A DNA stretch of 64,000 bases, taken from positions 5,445-69,444 of the forward strand of contig JAPOYT010000174.1 of NCBI GenBank assembly GCA_026706445.1, read 5' to 3'. Origin of the DNA: Chloroflexota bacterium. Its GTDB lineage: Bacteria; Chloroflexota; Anaerolineae; Aggregatilineales; Phototrophicaceae. The notes under the pieces were generated by a model. It searched no databases and was not told the DNA's origin. It was given only the letters and a program-made list of their open reading frames with translations. Position numbers and translations under genes: made by a program. Shown in pieces: positions 44,919 through 64,000 of this stretch; within the stretch, counting starts at the first letter, position 1, and every line of letters begins with the position of its first letter.

Positions 44919-45014
44919 GGGGTGGCTCCTGTTTGGGGTGGGGAAGTAATGGCGAGGGTAGCAGAGAACTCGTGGCCAATCCAGAGTTCGCTGGCCGACT
45001 CGGTCTACAAGCCG

Positions 45015-45042
45015 TTGGCAATGCGAGTTCATAAGCTATACT
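45015..45042 (+). promoter_or_regulatory. Putative sigma-70 promoter of the XRE-ImmA/DUF4411 module
   Basis: TTGGCA (45015-20), a 16-nt spacer, then TATACT (45037-42). A GAGGTGG ribosome-binding site and the ATG at 45069 follow. Confidence 0.5.
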
Positions 45043-45068
45043 ACTCTTGATTAGTTGAGGTGGAAATC

Positions 45069-46298
45069 ATGGTTACCGTAAATCATGAAAACCTTGAATG
45101 GGCACGTAATGCTGCCAAGTTAAGCATTGCAGATGCTGCCAAAAAACTTGGATTTACAAGTTCAAGCAGAAGCACAGCAACGGAAAAACTCCAGAAACTT
45201 GAAAACGGCGATAGACCCCCGACGCAGCCGCAATTGAGCAAAATGGCAAATGTGTACCGCGTACCGGTCGTTGCGTTCTATTTGGACTCTGAACCGCGGA
45301 AGAGTGACCTAGGTGAAGACTATCGTACGATTCCACAGCGGTCGGAAGACTCTGTTGCCAATGCCCATTTGGCAATCCTACTTAGTAACGTCAAGGCACG
45401 TCAGAGCATCACTCGAGATCTTCTTGAAGACGAAGACGCAGAGCCTCTCCGATTCGTATCCTCTGCTTCAACCAGAATGGGTGCTGACCGAGTCGCCAGC
45501 AGCATCGTCGAAACCATGGAGTTTAACCTTAAAGAATACCAGCGCCGGCCAAGCCAGCCGCGTGAAGCTTTCAATTATCTAAGATCCCGAATCCAATCAA
45601 TAGGGATATTCGTTCTTCTGATGAGCGACTTAGGTCATCCTCAGACTACGACAATTCCTGTTTCGGTTTTTCGTGGTTTCGCAATATCCGATGATATTGC
45701 TCCATACGTTGTTATCAATCGCAAGGATGATAAACGCGCACAGTCGTTTACTGCTTTGCATGAAGTGGCGCATCTTTGGCTGGGGACAAGTGGAATTACT
45801 GGTACGATAAATGAAACAAGCTCCAGTTTGGAACAGTTCTGTAATCGCGTTGCCGGTAGAATTCTCCTGCCCCGTCGTGAGCTTACAGCATTGTCCAAGA
45901 TGCATAATGACTCGTTCGACACCGCGCTAGATAGAATCACAGATTTTGCCCACTCAAAAAACCTGAGCCGGGCAATGGTAGCTTACAGTCTCAAGCTTGA
46001 AGATTACATCAGTCAAACTATGTGGTATCGGATCACTGAATGGCTGCTGCGTGACCACGCTCTACGCGAGCAACGCGAAAAGGAGCAGCGGGAACTTGAC
46101 AAGGCGCTCGGAAAAAGCACTCCAATTGACCCCAACGTGGTGAGGCGAAGTTCATTGGGCGAACCTCTGCTCAGCCTAGCGCGCCGTTCAGTTGCGAGCG
46201 GCGCTCTGACACCTACTAGAGCAAGCACATTGCTTGGCGTAAACCCACGTAAAGTAAGAACATTCCTAAATCCGGAACGATTGCGGCAGGAGGGCTAA
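45069..46298 (+). CDS. XRE-family HTH fused to an ImmA/IrrE (COG2856) zinc metallopeptidase domain
   Basis: The N-terminal HTH is LSIADAAKKLGFTS...QLSKMANVYRVPVVAF. The HExxH motif is ALHEVAHLWLG, preceded by FRGFAISDDIAPYVVINR. GC content is visibly lower than in the flanks. An alternative GTG start exists at 45060. Confidence 0.75.
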   Translation: MVTVNHENLEWARNAAKLSIADAAKKLGFTSSSRSTATEKLQKLENGDRPPTQPQLSKMANVYRVPVVAFYLDSEPRKSDLGEDYRTIPQRSEDSVANAHLAILLSNVKARQSITRDLLEDEDAEPLRFVSSASTRMGADRVASSIVETMEFNLKEYQRRPSQPREAFNYLRSRIQSIGIFVLLMSDLGHPQTTTIPVSVFRGFAISDDIAPYVVINRKDDKRAQSFTALHEVAHLWLGTSGITGTINETSSSLEQFCNRVAGRILLPRRELTALSKMHNDSFDTALDRITDFAHSKNLSRAMVAYSLKLEDYISQTMWYRITEWLLRDHALREQREKEQRELDKALGKSTPIDPNVVRRSSLGEPLLSLARRSVASGALTPTRASTLLGVNPRKVRTFLNPERLRQEG

Positions 46299-46826
46299 GT
46301 GCTCTACCTCTTGGACGCTAATGTGCTCATAACGGCACACGATGATTACTATCCAATTGACCGAATTCCGCAATTCTGGGAATGGATCATTGATAATACC
46401 AAGCAGGGTCACCTAAAGATGCCGTTTGAGATGATAGCCGAAGTTAAAGCCGGTCAACCAAAGAGAGATGCCGAAAATCAGGACGACGAACTATTGAGAT
46501 GGCTAAGAATTAACAATCATGAGAAGGAATTGCAGCTTGACGCAAGCGCTGATCAAGTGGAGGTGAATAGAGTCTTCAAAGACGGATACGAACTTCCGAC
46601 GCCATCTTTAGACGAGCTGAACAAGATTCGTAAGGATCCCTTACTTATCTCATACGCCTTGGGAGGACAACGCACTACTATCGTGACGCTGGAAGCAAAG
46701 CAAGAAAATGCAACCGACGAAATGAAAAAACATAAGCGAAAGATTCCGTTCGTTTGTCGAAAGCTAGGCATCCGCTGCATTGACACTTTCGATCTTATAC
46801 GGGAACTTGATTTCCGGATTACCTAG
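46299..46826 (+). CDS. DUF4411-family PIN-like nuclease
   Basis: 175 aa. The start codon immediately follows the upstream stop. The N-terminus is LYLLDANVLITAHDDYYPIDRIPQFWEWI, and the C-terminal part contains KIPFVCRKLGIRCIDTFDLIREL. Confidence 0.7.
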   Translation: MLYLLDANVLITAHDDYYPIDRIPQFWEWIIDNTKQGHLKMPFEMIAEVKAGQPKRDAENQDDELLRWLRINNHEKELQLDASADQVEVNRVFKDGYELPTPSLDELNKIRKDPLLISYALGGQRTTIVTLEAKQENATDEMKKHKRKIPFVCRKLGIRCIDTFDLIRELDFRIT

Positions 46827-46847
46827 CCGAACCAAGTCGAGTACCCA

Positions 46848-49259
46848 ATGCCCCAATTAACCACCCTCTTCCAAACCCTCCCCTACGGACCCGCCCCAGA
46901 ATCCGCTGACGCCGCCGACGCCTGGCTCGATTCGCACGGACGAAAGTTCGATCTCTTCATCAACAACAACTGGGTTGCGCCGGCCGAGGGCAGCTACCTC
47001 ACCATCTCCAACCCCGCCCGCGGCGAGACCCTGGCGCAAGCCGCCGACGCCAGCGCCATCGATATCGACGCCGCCGTATCCGCCGCCCGCGCCGCCTACG
47101 AAACCTGGTCGGCGCTGCGGCCGCATCAACGCGCCCGCCACCTCTACGCCATCGCCCGTAACATGCAGAAGCACGCGCGCCTGCTGGCGGTCGTGGAAAG
47201 CCTGGACAACGGCAAGCCGATCCGCGAATCGCGCGATATTGATGTGCCGCTGGCCGCGCGTCATTTCTACTATCACGCCGGCTGGGCGCAGATGGATACT
47301 GAGTTGCGCGATTACCAATCGCTTGGCGTCATCGGCCAGGTGATCCCCTGGAACTTCCCGCTTCTGATGCTGGCTTGGAAGATCGCGCCAGCGCTGGCGA
47401 CCGGCAACACGGTTGTCATCAAGCCGGCGCCTTACACGCCATTGAGCGCCCTGCTCTTCGCCGAGATCATCGCTGAAGCGGGAATCCCGCCGGGCGTGGT
47501 CAATATCGTGACTGGCGGCGACGAAGCGGGCGCAGCGCTGGTGGCGCATCATGACCTGGACAAGATCGCCTTCACCGGTTCGACCGCGGTCGGGCGAATT
47601 ATTCGGCGGGCGACGGCGGGCAGCGGCGTCAAGCTGACGCTGGAGCTGGGCGGCAAGTCGCCCTTCATCGTCTTCGACGATGCCGATATTGATGGCGCGA
47701 TTGAAGGGCTGGTCGATGCGATATTTTTCAATCAGGGAGAAGTATGCTGCGCCGGCTCGCGCCTGCTGGTGCAGGAAAATATCGCTGACATGTTCATCGA
47801 TCGTCTGAAAAGTCGAATGGCGCGCCTGCGGCTGGGCGATTCGCTGGATAAGGGCATCGATATCGGCGCGGTCATCGACCCGGTCCAATACGAGGCGATT
47901 GACAATTGGGTGCAGCGCGGCATCAGCGAAGGCGCCGATGTTTACCAGCCAAATTGTGACTTGCCGGCGAATGGCTGCTTCTATCCGCCGACCCTGCTGA
48001 CCAATCTCGAGGCCGCGGCCGCAGTCGCCCAAGAAGAGATCTTTGGTCCGGTCTTGGTGGCGATGAGCTTCCGCAGGCCCGGCGAAGCGGTGGAGCTGGC
48101 GAACAACAGCCGTTACGGCCTGGCGGCGTCCATCTGGAGCGAGAACATTAGCTTGGCGCTGGAGACGGCGCGTCTGGTCAAGGCAGGCAGCATCTGGATA
48201 AACAGCAGCAATCTATTCGATGCCGCCGCCGGTTTTGGCGGCTACCGTGAAAGCGGCTACGGGCGCGAAGGCGGAAAAGAAGGACTGTTTGCCTATTTGC
48301 GTCCCCGCTGGCAGAAACGAGCGCGTCCGCAATTGGGCGAGCCGCCAGCGGACTGGGGCGCGCGCACGCCGCCAGCGCCGCCGCCGCTAGGTGGTGAACA
48401 GCGCGCCAGGGCGGAGTTGGATCGTACAGCCAAGCTCTACATAGGCGGCAAACAGGCGCGACCCGATGGCAACTACACCCGTGCCGTCATCTCGCCATCA
48501 GGGTTGTTGGTCGGGCAAGCGGGCGACGGCAATCGCAAGGATGTCCGCAACGCGGTGGAAGCGGCGCATAAAGCCAAGGACTGGGCGACCTACTCGCCGC
48601 ATAACCGGGCGCAGATCCTCTATTATATCGCCGAGAATCTGTCAGCGCGGGCGGAAGAGTTCGCCGGGCGCATCACGATGATGACTGATACGCCGCCTGA
48701 TGAGGCGGGCGCGGAAATCGCGATGTCAATCGAGCGGCTGTTTCACTGGGCGGCCTTCGCCGACAAAGCCGGCGGGGCGGTTCAGGAAACGACCCTGCGC
48801 GGGCTCGTCGCCGCCATTCACGAGCCGGTGGGCGTTATCGGCATCGCCTGCCCGGATGAGGCGCCGCTGCTGGCTTTTGTATCGCTGGCGGCGCCTGCTA
48901 TCGCGCGTGGCAATACGGTCGTCTGCATCCCCTCGCCACCCTACCCGCTCAGCGCTACCGACCTTTATCAGGTATTCGACACTTCAGATCTGCCCGCGGG
49001 CGTCGTCAATATCATCACTGGCGAGCGCGATCACCTGGTTAAGACGCTGGTCGAGCACGATGATGTCGATAGCGTCTGGTATTTTGGGGACGCGGAAGGC
49101 AGCCGTCAAGTCGAGGCGCGCTCAATCCACAATATCAAGCGCGCGTGGGTCAGCTATGGCGCCGAGCGCGACTGGCATGACACCGAACAAGGCGCAGGCG
49201 CCGAGTTTCTCCTTGAGTCCACTGAAGTCAAGAATATCTGGGTTCCCACCGGCGCTTAA
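46848..49259 (+). CDS. Aldehyde dehydrogenase family protein with an extra C-terminal ALDH-like half-domain (803 aa)
   Basis: A full ALDH is present: PWNFPLLM, FTGSTAVG, ELGGKSP, catalytic FNQGEVCCAGSR, and EEIFGPV. About 300 further residues resemble an ALDH cofactor-binding half (EPVGVIGIACPDEAPLL, GNTVVCIPS, GVVNIITG). Confidence 0.8.
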   Translation: MPQLTTLFQTLPYGPAPESADAADAWLDSHGRKFDLFINNNWVAPAEGSYLTISNPARGETLAQAADASAIDIDAAVSAARAAYETWSALRPHQRARHLYAIARNMQKHARLLAVVESLDNGKPIRESRDIDVPLAARHFYYHAGWAQMDTELRDYQSLGVIGQVIPWNFPLLMLAWKIAPALATGNTVVIKPAPYTPLSALLFAEIIAEAGIPPGVVNIVTGGDEAGAALVAHHDLDKIAFTGSTAVGRIIRRATAGSGVKLTLELGGKSPFIVFDDADIDGAIEGLVDAIFFNQGEVCCAGSRLLVQENIADMFIDRLKSRMARLRLGDSLDKGIDIGAVIDPVQYEAIDNWVQRGISEGADVYQPNCDLPANGCFYPPTLLTNLEAAAAVAQEEIFGPVLVAMSFRRPGEAVELANNSRYGLAASIWSENISLALETARLVKAGSIWINSSNLFDAAAGFGGYRESGYGREGGKEGLFAYLRPRWQKRARPQLGEPPADWGARTPPAPPPLGGEQRARAELDRTAKLYIGGKQARPDGNYTRAVISPSGLLVGQAGDGNRKDVRNAVEAAHKAKDWATYSPHNRAQILYYIAENLSARAEEFAGRITMMTDTPPDEAGAEIAMSIERLFHWAAFADKAGGAVQETTLRGLVAAIHEPVGVIGIACPDEAPLLAFVSLAAPAIARGNTVVCIPSPPYPLSATDLYQVFDTSDLPAGVVNIITGERDHLVKTLVEHDDVDSVWYFGDAEGSRQVEARSIHNIKRAWVSYGAERDWHDTEQGAGAEFLLESTEVKNIWVPTGA

Positions 49260-58762: not shown

Positions 58763-60907
58763 CTAATCCGGTGTGTCGCAGAGGCCAAAGCTGTCGCCCA
58801 TGAACTGCACGTGCGAGTCAAAAGCCTGCGCGTTTTCGGCATCCCATAGTCGCCGGTAGCTGGCGTCGCCGCGCAGGGCCCAGGAGTTCTTGATATCAGA
58901 CAGATCGGTCTGCAAAATTCGCAGCACACGCCATTGTATCCGCGGGTCGAGGACGGGGAAAACAACCTCGACTCGGTTGAGCAAGTTGCGGCGCATCAAA
59001 TCAGCGCTGCCCATATACAGCTGCTGACGCTCGGGGGCATTGCGGAAGTAATAGATGCGACTGTGTTCCAGATAGCGGCCAACGATGCTCTTCACACGGA
59101 TGTTTTCGCTCAAGCCGGGCACGCCGGGCCGCAGGCAGCATAATCCGCGTACGATCAGATCAATCTTGACGCCCGCTTGCGACGCCTGATACAGCTTCTG
59201 TATGACTCGGTCTTCTTCCAATTGATTCATCTTGAAGATCATACGAGCGTCTTCGCCCCGGCGCGCCGCGTCGATTTCCTTGTCGATCAGCGCGAGAAGG
59301 GAATCTTGCAGATATTCGGGCGCCACCAGCAACTGATTGTAGGTGGTTTCGGGCGCGTAACCAGTCAGCCGATTGAAGAGGCGCGAGGCGTCATCGGCGA
59401 TCTCGTCGTTGCAGGTGAACAGACCGATATCAGCGTAGAGACGCGCGGTGGCCGCGTTGTAATTTCCGGTGCCCAGATGCACATAGCGGCGCAATCCGTC
59501 ACGCTCGCGGCGGACGACCAACGAAATCTTGGCGTGCGTCTTGACCGGCAGTTCCTCGACGCCATAGACAACGTGCACGCCTTTCTCCTCCAGCGCCGTC
59601 ACCCATTCCAGGTTGTTCTCTTCGTCAAAGCGCGCCTTTAGCTCCACCAGCACAGTGACCTGTTTTTCATTGTCGCGCGCCTCGAGCAGGTCGTTGACCA
59701 CGGGCGAGTTCTTGCCGACGCGGTACAAGGTAGTTTTGATCGCCAGCACATCGGGATCGCGCGCCGCCTGCTTGAAGAAGTCTTCGACCGGCGCGAAAGA
59801 GTCATAGGGGTGATGCACGATGACATCCTGTTTGCGGATCACTTCAAAGAAATCGGACGACTGCGCAAATGGTTTCGCCACACGCGGCGCATAGGGCGGA
59901 TCTTTCAAATCCGGTCGATCCACGCGCAAAAGCTCAAACAAGTCGGCTGAACCCAATTTGCCATCAATACGGAAGACAACTTCACGCGTTGATGGCACCT
60001 CCAGCGAGCTCGCCAGTCGATTGAGCATGCGCTCGCTGATCTCGGCCGGCACGCTCAGCCGGACGACCGAGCCAAAGCGCCGTTCCTTAACCCCCTGCTC
60101 GATAATTGATTTGACATCCAGCAGGTCTTCGTCCTGCTCATGCTCGTAGTCGATATCGGCATTGCGCAGGATGCGGAAGGGAAAAGCCTCCATGATATGC
60201 ATGCCGGGGAACAAGTCTGTCAGGTAATCGGAAATCACATCTTCCATCCACAAGAAATGGTATCCGTCGTGGATGCGGCCGGTGTAATTGGTCATGACAC
60301 TCTCGAGGTGAACCATCCGCGGCAAGATATCGACCGGCACCTTGATGCGCGCGAAGTCAATGCCGCTCGCCATTTCGCCATTGGCGCGCTCGAGATACAC
60401 GCCCAGGTTCAAGCTCAAATTGGAGATGAAGGGGAAAGGTCTGGCGTGATCAACCGCCAGCGGCGTGAGCACGGGATAGACCTCGGAGCGGAAATAATAG
60501 GTGATCGCCTCCCGCTCGCTTTCGCTCAGTTGGGCGGTTGTAATGAAATGCACATCCTGCTGCTCCAGCAGCTCAAAGACGTGCCGCCGGACGCGGCGCT
60601 GGCGCGCAATCAGGGCGGAGACTTCATCGTGGATTTGGCGCAGCAGCTGCGTGGGCGTAATGCCATCGGGCCGCGTCATCGGGTTGCTCAGGCGCAGGCG
60701 CTGGAAATAGGCGCCGACGCGAACCATGTAGAATTCGTCAAGATTATTGCCGACGATGGCGATAAACTTCACGCGCTCCAGCAGCGGCGTCGTCTCGTCT
60801 TCAGCCAAAGCGAGCACACGCTTCTGAAAGTCAAGCGTGCTCAATTCGCGATTGATGAAATTGTCGGGGGAGAGCGCCGGCGCCCGGTCTTCCCATGCTT
60901 CAATCAT
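58763..60907 (-). CDS. ppk: Polyphosphate kinase 1
   Basis: 714 aa. Blocks: FINRELSTLDFQKRVL, NLDEFYMVRV, RNADIDYE, the two HKD-type regions HAKISLVVRRE and YLEHSRIYYF, and MGSADLMRRNL. Confidence 0.9.
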   Translation of the reverse strand: MIEAWEDRAPALSPDNFINRELSTLDFQKRVLALAEDETTPLLERVKFIAIVGNNLDEFYMVRVGAYFQRLRLSNPMTRPDGITPTQLLRQIHDEVSALIARQRRVRRHVFELLEQQDVHFITTAQLSESEREAITYYFRSEVYPVLTPLAVDHARPFPFISNLSLNLGVYLERANGEMASGIDFARIKVPVDILPRMVHLESVMTNYTGRIHDGYHFLWMEDVISDYLTDLFPGMHIMEAFPFRILRNADIDYEHEQDEDLLDVKSIIEQGVKERRFGSVVRLSVPAEISERMLNRLASSLEVPSTREVVFRIDGKLGSADLFELLRVDRPDLKDPPYAPRVAKPFAQSSDFFEVIRKQDVIVHHPYDSFAPVEDFFKQAARDPDVLAIKTTLYRVGKNSPVVNDLLEARDNEKQVTVLVELKARFDEENNLEWVTALEEKGVHVVYGVEELPVKTHAKISLVVRRERDGLRRYVHLGTGNYNAATARLYADIGLFTCNDEIADDASRLFNRLTGYAPETTYNQLLVAPEYLQDSLLALIDKEIDAARRGEDARMIFKMNQLEEDRVIQKLYQASQAGVKIDLIVRGLCCLRPGVPGLSENIRVKSIVGRYLEHSRIYYFRNAPERQQLYMGSADLMRRNLLNRVEVVFPVLDPRIQWRVLRILQTDLSDIKNSWALRGDASYRRLWDAENAQAFDSHVQFMGDSFGLCDTPD

Positions 60908-61514: not shown

Positions 61515-61787
61515 TTGGATCCCAATGCGCAATTTCTCATCACAGTTGGAACGGTTATCGCAGTATTTCTTTGGCTGCGGAATGATATAAACCGGCTTGA
61601 CGCGAAGATTGATCGTGTGGACACGAAAGTTGACCGAGTACACAGCAACCTGCAAAGCGACTTCAACTCTATGCGCGGGGAGATTAACTCGGTTCGCGGA
61701 GAAGTTTCGTCTATCCGCGAGTCGCTCGCTTGGCTGCGCGGTCGGCTGGGATATGGTGATGTGGACACAGATGATAATGCGCTGTAG
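61515..61787 (+). CDS. Hypothetical N-terminally anchored coiled-coil protein (TTG start)
   Basis: 90 aa with an AGGGAG ribosome-binding site. The TM segment is FLITVGTVIAVFLWL, followed by a heptad-like repeat region (DAKIDRVDTKVDRVHSNLQSDFNSMRGEINSVRGEVSSIRESL). Confidence 0.45.
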   Translation: MDPNAQFLITVGTVIAVFLWLRNDINRLDAKIDRVDTKVDRVHSNLQSDFNSMRGEINSVRGEVSSIRESLAWLRGRLGYGDVDTDDNAL

Positions 61788-61825: not shown

Positions 61826-62041
61826 TTAATTCAAGTTGCCAAGTAGCTCTTCTAGCAACTCCTTAAGTTTGTCGCCCGCGAGTTTGTACCCGTCCGCATA
61901 CCCTTGTTCGTAAGCGCAGTAAGTACATTTGTGACGCCCGCCGCCAGACTGATTTTCCGGCAGCGTTTTCATGATCTTATCAAGATCGTCCCGCCGATAT
62001 TTATTTCGTTTTCCCGCATGTTTTGAACAATCATTCGCCAT
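61826..62041 (-). CDS. Hypothetical 71-aa protein translationally coupled to the Dam-family methylase
   Basis: Its start overlaps the methylase stop (ATGA-type overlap at 62039-62043). Cys/His residues (C5, H8, HKCTYC) suggest a small metal-binding fold. No family is recognised. Confidence 0.45.
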   Translation of the reverse strand: MANDCSKHAGKRNKYRRDDLDKIMKTLPENQSGGGRHKCTYCAYEQGYADGYKLAGDKLKELLEELLGNLN

Positions 62042-62912
62042 TAGCTGCCAACCTCATAATTCGTCACCAACAATTCATTTACTGCGCCTCGTTGGTCGGG
62101 CTTGCTATTGACCATTCGCGGCGCTTTAACCTCGTCAATTGAGAAAATGCAATCTGCATAGAGTTCGCGCGTGAACGGGGTATCGCTGTTGGACAGCAGA
62201 ATCGACGCGCCGCGCATGTGCAATTCTCGGCAAAGATCGCGCAACATAATTTGCTCTGCCTCGCCGAAGCCATTTCGCGCGTAATCAGTGAAGGAGCCGC
62301 CAGCTAACGGATGATAGGGTGGATCGAAATAGACGAAGTCACCGGCGCCAGCCTCCACTTCGCAGAAGTCGCATTTTCGGACGAGAACCGACTGAAGCGC
62401 AGCATGGCAGCCGCGCAGCATCGCAGGCTGGCAGATCGCCGGCTTTTCTGCGCTCCCCATCGGCACGTTGAACTCGCCCTTGCTGTTCACACGCCAAAGG
62501 CCGTTGTAGCAGGTCTTGTTGAGGTAGATGAAGCGCGCCGCTATCTCGATCCGGTCATCGAGATCGTGCTGGCTGCGGATGTGGTAGTAGTAGTCTTTCG
62601 AGTGATTTTGGGCGTGCTGCTTTAGCTTATGAATGAGGGGTTCTGGGTCGCGCTGGATGACCTGGTAGGTATTGATGAGGTCAAAGTTGACATCACTTAA
62701 GAATGCCTCCCCCCCCCCCCCCCGCCTAAATTAACTTTTCGTTCATTCTTCAAAGCGAAGAAAAGCGCGCCGCCGCCAACGAAGGGTTCGTAATAATTCT
62801 TGAATTCAGCCGGAACACGAGCCTGAAGCTCGGGCAGGAGGCTGCGCTTGCCGCCTACCCACTTGACGAATGGCTTCGCATTGTGAAAATCGGGTAAAGA
62901 CGTTTGGGGCAT
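62041..62912 (-). CDS. Dam-family (MethyltransfD12) N6-adenine DNA methyltransferase, reading frame interrupted at a poly-G tract
   Basis: The N-terminal piece (ORF 62697..62984, probable start Met25 at 62912) reads [15 protein letters not shown], then [11 protein letters not shown]. The middle and C-terminal part, in the other frame, reads [17 protein letters not shown], then [24 protein letters not shown], then FVYFDPPY. The frames would join if the tract were 16 or 13 nt instead of 15. Confidence 0.8.
62709..62723 (-). repeat. Homopolymer: C15 on the plus strand, G15 on the coding strand
   Basis: Counted directly in the sequence (62709-62723). It encodes poly-Gly and is the site of the frame break. 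Confidence 0.9.
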
Positions 62913-62948
62913 TTGCTGCCATCGACCATAAAAGTTGCGCACACTTGA

Positions 62949-62977
62949 TCTATATGATCGTTTTGCGCGCCTGTCAA
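62949..62977 (-). promoter_or_regulatory. Putative sigma-70 promoter of the methylase gene
   Basis: The minus strand reads TTGACA (62977-62972), a 17-nt spacer, then TATAGA (62954-62949), about 35 nt upstream of the ATG at 62912. Confidence 0.5.
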
Positions 62978-63076
62978 GCGGCACTAAATCCTAGAATTCT
63001 AAAACGCCGCTCACCTATGGTATACTTTCCGACTGATATGGAATCAAAAACCGCAGTCGTCGACGAAGGGAAGGTT

Positions 63077-64000
63077 ATGGCCTCGCCATCCAAAGAGATG
63101 CTCCTAGACTGGTATCGGCAAATGGTGCTGATCCGCGAATTCGAGGAGACCTGCCACCAACTCTATGAAGAGAAGCGCATCACCGGCGTCTATCTGCATC
63201 TCTACAGCGGGCACGAAGCCAGCGGCGTCGGCTCGATGGCGGCGCTGAGGAAGACCGATCATGTCATCACCGCCTATCGCGACCATGGCATCGCCCTAAT
63301 CCTGGGCATGGACCCCAAAGCGGTCATGGCCGAGATGATGGGCAAGAAGACCGGCAGCAGCGGCGGCAAGGGCGGCTCCATGCACCTGGCCTCCAAAGAC
63401 CACAATTTCTGGGGCGGCTATGCCATCGTCGGCGGACACCTGCCGCTTGCGGCCGGCATCGCTCTGGAAGCGCGCTATCGAGACAAAGACGATGTGACCA
63501 TGACCTATGTCGGCGATGGCGCCACCAACAACGGCTACTTCCATGAGTCGCTCAATATGAGCGCTATTTGGGACCTGCCGGTGATCTGGATCATCGAGAA
63601 CAACGGCTACGGCATGGGCACCGAGGTCGAGCGCGCCAGCGGCCAGATTGAGCTGCACCGCAAAGCCGAAGCTTACGGCATCAAGAGCTTCGGCCGCGTC
63701 GACGCGCAAAACGCGCTTGATGTTTACGCGGTCGCCGCAAAAGCCGTTGAGTATGCGCGGACGAATGGACCGGCTGTCATTGAGCACGTGACCTATCGTT
63801 ATCGCGGGCATGGCGTCTCCGACAAGCAATACGACGCGCGCGACGATATGTCGACTGAACTAAAAGAATGGATGAAAACGCGCGAGCCGATCAAGATCCT
63901 GCGCGATTGCATCGAAAGCAAATACGGCGATGTCGGCGATATCCTGGCAAAGCACAGAGACGATGCGCAGCGAATCGTGGCCGAGTCGGTCGCTTTCGCC
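63077..64000 (+). CDS. pdhA: Pyruvate/2-oxoacid dehydrogenase E1 component alpha subunit (3' end outside the window)
   Basis: ORF open from the ATG at 63077 to the window end. It is absent from the ORF track because it has no stop in the window. Blocks: MASPSKEMLLDWYRQMVLIREFEE, YRDHG, GKGGSMH, TPP motif GDGATNNG...IIENNGYGMGT, YRYRGH. Confidence 0.85.
   Translation, partial: MASPSKEMLLDWYRQMVLIREFEETCHQLYEEKRITGVYLHLYSGHEASGVGSMAALRKTDHVITAYRDHGIALILGMDPKAVMAEMMGKKTGSSGGKGGSMHLASKDHNFWGGYAIVGGHLPLAAGIALEARYRDKDDVTMTYVGDGATNNGYFHESLNMSAIWDLPVIWIIENNGYGMGTEVERASGQIELHRKAEAYGIKSFGRVDAQNALDVYAVAAKAVEYARTNGPAVIEHVTYRYRGHGVSDKQYDARDDMSTELKEWMKTREPIKILRDCIESKYGDVGDILAKHRDDAQRIVAESVAFA

Follow-up and report, generated by a model that had tools for sequence, protein, structure and literature searches.

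A gene for a Dam/DpnM-type adenine methylase, encoded on the minus strand of a 64-kb stretch of DNA from an uncultivated, probably sponge-associated Chloroflexota bacterium (the window, whose positions serve as coordinates throughout), is split by an uninterrupted run of 15 G. Comparison with related loci suggests, with a probability that we put at about three in four, that this run is a conserved hypermutable contingency tract in a probably GATC-specific methylase, and that the window holds the OFF allele of a switch found across the clade. An earlier interpretation made from the letters of the window alone (the sequence-only reading) had proposed a phase-variable methylase here, and this proposal gains support from the tract being kept both in and out of frame among relatives and from its variation between G6 and G12 among near-identical contigs.

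The tract, C15 on the plus strand and G15 on the coding strand (coordinates of all features are in Table 1), is the sole homopolymer longer than 7 nt in the window, and a G12 pattern had no match in 100 dinucleotide-preserving shuffles. At G15, the N-terminal frame continues past the tract as RHS and then meets TAA, and the adjacent frame stays open from inside the tract to the methylase stop. Inserting one G (G16) or deleting two (G13) gave a single continuous protein of 290 or 289 amino acids (aa), respectively, and the 870 nt of the gene contain no other stop or frameshift besides the tract. The sequence-only reading had described a Dam-family gene split by 15 G with a stop three codons on, the rest of the enzyme, DPPY included, in the adjacent frame down to 62041, and one protein of about 290 aa at 16 or 13 G, and its base counting, motifs and coordinates all proved correct. 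Directly after the tract, the string TTC TTA AGT GA provides a TAA and a TGA that stop both wrong frames, each within five codons of the tract. In the window, a TAA shortly before the tract closes the C-terminal frame, whose first start codon comes only at 62490, so no C-terminal fragment can be initiated there.

Judging from profile matches of the frame-repaired protein, the gene clearly encodes a Dam-family (D12-class N6-adenine) methyltransferase. The protein matched PF02086 over profile positions 1-251 of 253 (E 2e-57, 195 bits against a cut-off of 22) and TIGR00571 'dam' with E 8e-83 (278 bits, cut-off 115), and FVGGGA (motif I) and DPPY (motif IV), which lie 5′ and 3′ of the tract, are both invariant in the homologue alignment. 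The top solved-structure matches, both over the whole length, were DpnM (M.DpnIIA, 2dpm; E 1.6e-60) and E. coli Dam (2g1p; E 1e-32), which have KW.GGK, FxGxG, NGLxRxN, FNVP and DPPY in common with the window enzyme but lack the 11-residue insertion that holds the tract. In the alignments to 2dpm and 2g1p, on which the placement of the loop rests, this insertion lies between motif I and the next LSD/ADIN segment; an AlphaFold2 model built on a 17-sequence alignment had a mean pLDDT of 58, with the N-terminal 75 residues below 50, and was not used. An insertion of about 10 aa relative to Dam enzymes had been predicted, in agreement with the 11-residue gap, and the idea that the tract is an added, non-ancestral feature is supported by the loop insertion and by its limitation to the poly-Gly clade described below.

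A protein-alignment scan of representative genomes returned at least seven close loci (L001-L007) among the matches listed, and metagenome contigs scanned with a clade-specific degenerate pattern gave two more (L085 and L086). The same pattern had no match in viral contigs, so nothing points to a phage origin. The methylases of L001-L006 share 66-75% protein identity with the window enzyme, and L001-L006, L085 and L086, eight loci that span the site, have an unbroken G run at one and the same codon; counted over all nine related loci that cover the site, the run is G9-G20, with three in frame and six out. Of the eight, three are in frame (L001, G13; L002, G11; L086, G9) and five are out of frame (L003, G14; L004 and L005, G20; L006, G13; L085, G10), with the out-of-frame loci shifted in both directions. 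The remaining contig, L007, starts at the tract with a garbled C16...C9 directly before the post-tract sequence (L007 1-60). No such G run was present in loci at 52% identity or less. The TTC TTA AGT GA string also follows the tract in L001, L004, L005, L007 and L085-L104.

At the protein level, a close clade of about 59% identity or more made up 65 of the 120 top protein matches, and nearly all of its members have 2-7 consecutive Gly at the tract site (the exceptions are P0034 and P0077). The closest methylases come from Chloroflexota metagenome-assembled genomes (MAGs) labelled Anaerolineae, Phototrophicaceae or 'Chloroflexi bacterium'. About 30 of the close-clade proteins are full-length, and about 33 are C-terminal fragments of 220-235 aa with a called start shortly before the tract, for example MKEELIQRGGGQAFLSD, which is a shifted reading of LKNEGRINxAGGGGQAFLSD. 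The spacing from FxGGGA to LSD is 16-22 residues in the poly-Gly clade versus 11-13 residues, without poly-Gly, in distant Dam proteins, and a few intermediate Dam proteins have a longer loop (17 residues) that lacks poly-Gly. In a neighbour-joining tree of the C-terminal 200 residues, with the loop left out, all poly-G sequences fall into a single contiguous group, within which the run seems to have been lost once. The C-terminal fragments of the relatives' OFF alleles are complete and keep all motifs, which argues against decay, and both halves of the window gene can be aligned over their full extent with complete relatives, at about 73% identity and with every catalytic motif in place. Aligning the Dam homologues of relatives, a check that the sequence-only reading had suggested, showed that the insertion and the tract are conserved and that tract length varies, and the split gene has none of the further disabling lesions that it had named as a sign of plain decay.

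In many relatives (for example, P0020, P0027, P0038 and P0054, with MKEELIQRGGG...), an ATG in the alternative frame, derived from AAT GAA, precedes the tract by 6-7 codons. Such relatives could, in one OFF phase, make separate N- and C-terminal fragments divided within a surface loop, a conceivable 'split enzyme', and this state is inapplicable to the window, where the TAA just upstream of the tract closes that alternative frame.

Codon choice around the tract differs from that of the surrounding genes. GGG accounts for 10% of Gly codons in two neighbouring genes, TTA for 1% of Leu codons and AGT for 7% of Ser codons, and motif I of the methylase itself reads GGC GGC GGC, whereas the loop glycines are GGG in every locus. 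The pure GGG tract, together with the conserved rare TTA-AGT codons, argues for selection at the nucleotide level, and the retention of the uninterrupted tract, the promoter and the out-of-frame stops across relatives at 66-75% identity would require that this selection is continuing. The in-frame relatives have 3-7 loop glycines, and going by these alleles, the enzyme evidently tolerates a varying number of them.

Length variation among near-identical genomes was observed in a related species represented by the P0016 cluster, which comprises 18 contigs from a dozen or more samples. Among the ten contigs compared pairwise, the flanks are gap-free over 1.9-5.5 kb and differ at 0-11 positions (at most 0.3%), and the tract is the only indel-polymorphic site of the locus. 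Counted after ATAGGC in all 18 contigs, the tract has an ON length in eight (G6 in five contigs, G9 in two, G12 in one) and an OFF length in ten (G7 in seven contigs, G10 in two, G11 in one), and protein variants add G5. Within one study, the length differs between samples, being G6 in SAMN12347671, -673 and -676, G7 in -678, G11 in -679 and G9 in -691. Similarly, in at least nine of ten clusters at 90% identity, split forms occur alongside full-length ones, or there are in-frame variants that differ by one Gly. As in known contingency genes, the tract lies within an ORF, its length sets the frame, and the gene is otherwise intact in OFF alleles.

Under the proposed switch, slipped-strand mispairing at replication would add or remove G; both this mechanism and its reversibility are what we infer from the alleles. 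At G13, G16 and congruent lengths, a surface loop of 5-6 glycines would be read through to give the 289-290 aa enzyme. At G15, translation would stop three codons later at the TAA, leaving only a 71-aa N-terminal peptide, and a separate, translationally coupled ORF downstream, also of 71 aa, would be uncoupled and lose its translational feed. The outcome would be the presence or absence of, probably, GATC methylation. For the orphan version in the window, epigenetic heterogeneity or altered susceptibility to phage or incoming DNA would be plausible consequences, and for relatives that carry nucleases in the same cassette, a switchable defence or repair state would be plausible.

Several points weigh against this interpretation and keep our confidence below certainty. 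A run of G15 is error-prone on every sequencing platform, and its true modal length could be G16, that is, ON. The window's own population is represented by a single sample, seen in the window, in DAOUKF010000103.1 (MAG GCA_034421655.1) and in the ENA scaffold ROBB21-1_SAMN13943208, and all three have G15. These assemblies differ mutually only at one or two bases, in pdhA, and, as they probably go back to one set of reads, do not count as independent. The ratio of ON to OFF alleles among relatives is near a random 1:2, as would also be expected of a dispensable gene with a mutational hot spot. In addition, a methylase that is OFF beside a nuclease should be self-toxic unless the nuclease is co-silenced, a paradox from which loss of translational coupling to the nuclease in the OFF phase would be one possible escape in the nuclease-bearing relatives.

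The alternative that survives best, although we consider it unlikely, is a homopolymer miscall, in which the cell carries an intact gene (for example, with G16) and sequencing or assembly of the long G run created the split. G15 is long enough for miscounting, and assemblies struggle at the tract, as seen in the garbled start of L007 and in the Logan contig L083 (SRR10996932), which comes from the window's population and ends before the tract; the two OFF loci with G20, L004 and L005, come from MAG records that consist of a single chromosome and may be long-read assemblies. The finding of G15 in three assemblies speaks against a miscall, although these probably share their reads. The P0016 runs are short (G6, G7 and G9-G12) and differ between samples with identical flanks in assemblies that bear short-read-style names (k141/scaffold/Logan), so miscounting cannot explain the variation in that species. 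Moreover, an off-by-one count would alter only the phase of the window, ON or OFF, and the conserved hypermutable site would remain. Apart from the question of phase, the breaks at the tract (L007 and L083) suggest that MAGs will frequently lack such loci or contain them in pieces.

Less probable again is recoding, in which RNA polymerase slippage or ribosomal frameshifting would rescue the frame in a fraction of products and the tract would tune dosage. Long homopolymers are known to cause transcriptional slippage, as established mainly for A/T runs (PMC3711429), tracts of 13-20 nt would plausibly slip, and the alternative-frame ATG of many relatives could start a C-terminal fragment. However, programmed frameshifts are fixed in direction, and the relatives are in frame, +1 or -1 without pattern, with tracts of 5 to 20, so that the homologues do not share the one frameshift, constant in direction and site, that programmed recoding would show, and recoding is unsupported as the primary logic. 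Both wrong frames are stopped immediately, and in the window, the C-terminal frame is closed upstream and without an early start. Some RNA-level rescue on long runs is possible, and such slippage would be compatible with switching at the DNA level without replacing it.

A plain pseudogene, frameshifted and decaying, is very improbable, since the split gene, a cassette without the nuclease genes of relatives and a near-random ON:OFF ratio would fit it but the gene has no second lesion, its halves match relatives from end to end, dozens of independent OFF alleles in relatives have intact halves, and the tract, promoter and out-of-frame stops are kept across relatives. A fixed programmed frameshift and a pseudogene were both rejected on the comparative data.

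Returning to the phase-variable methylase, the promoter TTGACA-17-TATAGA, which the sequence-only reading called a good one, is present upstream of the gene, and both hexamers are invariant in the eight aligned loci, with the rest of the intergenic region diverging around them among relatives at 66-75% protein identity, a pattern of phylogenetic footprinting. A consensus promoter scan did not call TTGACA-17-TATAGA, because the -10 hexamer lacks the final T required at position 6. Two GATC sites bracket and overlap the -10; the downstream site, which overlaps the hexamer, is kept in all eight loci, and the upstream site, 9 nt further up, in six of them. The GATC-bearing -10 motif is also found in L001-L006 and L087. 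If the enzyme methylates GATC, its own promoter would be a target, and we infer from the position of these sites that transcription could plausibly be coupled to hemimethylation or be subject to methylation-sensitive autoregulation. Further upstream of this promoter (window 62990-63037) is another conserved motif, AAGTATA(C/A)CATAG, which is also present in L001, L002, L004, L006 and L087; on the opposite strand it reads CTATGGTATACTT and resembles an extended -10 (TGnTATACT) of the divergent pdhA.

The window enzyme reached 147 bits against the cut-off of 441 of the E. coli Dam equivalog model, so its GATC specificity is given here as probable, on the basis of DpnM and Dam, both GATC enzymes, as its nearest relatives of solved structure, the MutH/Sau3AI-like neighbours in relatives and the GATC sites conserved at the promoter.

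The window has in common with L001, L002, L005, L006, L081 and L087-L100 a gene order that runs from pdhB-pdhA (divergent) through the methylase, a small cassette and a GlsB-like membrane protein to polyphosphate kinase (ppk), and L004 shares the methylase-to-ppk side. The pdhA neighbour was present in L001, L002, L005, L006, L081 and L087-L099, and matches PF00676 in those with gene calls. The methylase gene has 54% GC compared with 58% for the window, and a GC at third codon positions of 0.68 compared with 0.73 for ppk. The description of the region as a low-GC insert was therefore not upheld, as its composition is only mildly lower and the same pdhBA/glsB-like/ppk site is occupied in relatives, and a recently acquired low-GC island was rejected on synteny and composition. 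Occupation of the same syntenic site in relatives at 66-75% identity points to a long-resident gene with no recent insertion. The lowest GC of the window (0.47-0.50 against a mean of 0.58) is found at 22001-23000 and 45001-47000, clearly below that of the methylase region.

Directly downstream, the 71-aa Cys/His ORF starts at an ATG that overlaps the methylase stop, as the sequence-only reading had noted. It contains an HKCxYCAYE motif, has no Pfam or NCBIfam match, and has homologues at the same site in L003 (1241-1486), L004 (4850-5074) and L088-L100 (L088 2958-3173), with the P0016 species among the carriers. The family, of 15 proteins among 5.8 billion, is restricted to the clade, its members invariably overlap the stop codon of the methylase, and it may be a partner or regulator of the methylase/nuclease cassette. 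The interval between the methylase and ppk in the window (this ORF, a 90-aa coiled-coil ORF and the GlsB-like ORF) contains no nuclease domain, so that the cognate restriction endonuclease that adjoins the methylase in Type II GATC systems (DpnII, MboI, Sau3AI) is missing there. The absence of an adjacent restriction endonuclease, claimed from the sequence, thus holds for the window and fails for relatives, which have a MutH/Sau3AI-like nuclease, a PDDEXK_11 nuclease or both just downstream. A MutH-domain protein of about 205 aa (PF02976, E 1e-12 to 1e-14) directly follows the methylase in L002, L005 and L006, and a PDDEXK_11 nuclease (PF20472) of 154-185 aa is found in L001, L003, L005 and the P0016 species. 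The MutH-domain copy of L005 gave weak matches to the Sau3AI and MutH NCBIfam models, far below their equivalog cut-offs. From this gene content, the locus looks derived from a restriction-modification system, and the window either lost or never had the nuclease, which makes its methylase an orphan. MutH and Sau3AI are GATC enzymes, in line with the specificity proposed above.

The conserved 90-aa ORF (window 61515-61787, plus strand; L001 5316-5582) separates the methylase cassette from the GlsB-like gene; it has an N-terminal hydrophobic segment and coiled-coil-like heptads, with weak matches to P10 and XhlA-type coiled coils. In pdhA, the window differs at 63173 and 63190 from the NCBI contig (two bases, L081/L084) and at one base from the ENA scaffold (L082). 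The NCBI variant at 63173 splits pdhA into 290- and 52-aa products, and the gene is intact in the window and in the ENA version. Under a trinucleotide Markov model of the whole window, the observed/expected ratio was 0.46 for GGCC and 0.57 for CTAG, and the strong under-representation of GGCC suggests that a HaeIII-type restriction system exerts, or once exerted, pressure on this DNA; the ratio for GATC (0.83) is uninformative on restriction pressure.

Table 1. Features of the methylase locus (window positions unless a relative's locus is named)
Feature	Position	Strand	Remarks
Divergent pdhA-like E1 alpha gene, synteny anchor	63038..64000	+	Runs off the window
-35 hexamer TTGACA	62972..62977	-	Invariant in 8/8 aligned loci
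Two GATC sites around the -10 (GATCATATAGATC)	62947..62959 (62956-62959 and 62947-62950)	.	Bracket and overlap the -10
-10 hexamer TATAGA, 17 nt past the -35	62949..62954	-	TATAGATCAA; invariant in 8/8 loci
N-terminal methylase frame	62697..62912	-	ATG 62912; KWVGGKR, FVGGGA (AdoMet motif I)
G15 homopolymer, proposed slippage switch	62709..62723	-	In frame at G13/G16, out of frame at G15
TTC TTA AGT GA directly after the tract	62693..62702	-	TAA 62699-62697 and TGA 62695-62693 stop both wrong frames
C-terminal methylase frame	62041..62708	-	Intact; EAFLSDVN..., DPPY; stop 62043-62041
71-aa Cys/His ORF	61826..62041	-	ATG overlaps methylase stop (TAATG)
Polyphosphate kinase (ppk), synteny anchor on the other side	58763..60907	-	Also a neighbour in relatives
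Cassette nuclease genes of relatives	L001 4845-5315; L002 4852-5478; L003 1483-1950; L005 4837-5451 and 5381-5938; L006 4853-5479; L087 3173-3637		

If the proposed switch is real, uncultivated environmental and symbiotic bacteria switch their epigenetic or defence state stochastically, and the switch would be conserved throughout a lineage with dominant sponge symbionts among its members rather than an oddity of one strain. Tract length would then be a testable marker that can be linked with GATC methylation, phage pressure or host in metagenomes and long-read methylomes. Annotation labels about half of these methylase genes as fragments or pseudogenes, and assemblies break at the tract, so annotation pipelines and MAG quality metrics misread the locus. 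A more ambitious proposal, to which we give slightly less than even odds, is that of a dedicated clade-wide contingency locus, in which a GATC-type Dam with back-up stops and GATC promoter feedback would act as a genome-wide toggle for bet-hedging. What it controls could be a set of genes under epigenetic regulation, defence against phage or, as a mutator state, Dam/MutH-type repair, depending on the downstream cassette. The clade would comprise Anaerolineae-type and Phototrophicaceae MAGs together with abundant sponge symbionts, with the locus kept over deep divergence, and bet-hedging would be at work in slow-growing environmental or symbiotic bacteria, for which little thought has been given to phase variation.

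In host-adapted pathogens, phase-variable DNA methyltransferases are a textbook device, described mainly for Type I (hsd), Type III (mod) and Type IIG systems. A literature search found no report for Chloroflexota or for a Dam/D12-family enzyme with a conserved homopolymer, which is no proof of absence. The sequence-only reading regarded such a locus as unusual in a genome this rich in GC. Several closely related contigs bear names in which we take ENGE20 and ROBB21 to be sponge-metagenome study codes and COS2_bin to be the isolate name of a sponge MAG, and the window organism, as part of a sponge metagenome series, is probably host-associated, which makes a contingency locus less out of place than that reading had assumed. 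Repeat-bearing Type III mod genes, moreover, occur in environmental species as well as in pathogens (PMC5909438).

Compared with known systems, the locus resembles the Type III mod phasevarions (ModA, ModH and ModM) in having a repeat in the methyltransferase ORF, frame-shift ON/OFF control and a length that varies between strains. It differs from them in that the enzyme is a D12-class Dam/DpnM methylase of Type II or orphan architecture with no res partner, the host is an uncultivated Chloroflexota, and a loop insertion of its own, placed between motif I and the next strand, holds the tract. The pairing of a GATC methylase with a Sau3AI- or MutH-like GATC endonuclease is echoed by the MutH-domain neighbour in L002, L005 and L006, but the window lacks such a gene. 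Dam-sensitive promoters with GATC in the -10 region exist, for example, that of the IS10 transposase, and here too a GATC overlaps the -10, so that methylation state could modulate transcription; unlike in those cases, the promoter would drive the methylase itself, with possible feedback. Homopolymers also control Type II and IIG genes of Campylobacter (cj0031, PMC4889913) and H. pylori (PMC4209511), which likewise have poly-G/C tracts in coding sequences and ON/OFF methylation. Those tracts are numerous and strain-specific in small, AT-rich genomes of host-restricted pathogens, whereas the tract described here is the one long homopolymer in 64 kb of about 58% GC and is conserved over a deep clade. 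What is unusual about this locus among such systems is the combination of deep tract conservation, a dedicated loop, dual wrong-frame stops and a GATC in the -10, in uncultivated sponge-associated and environmental hosts.

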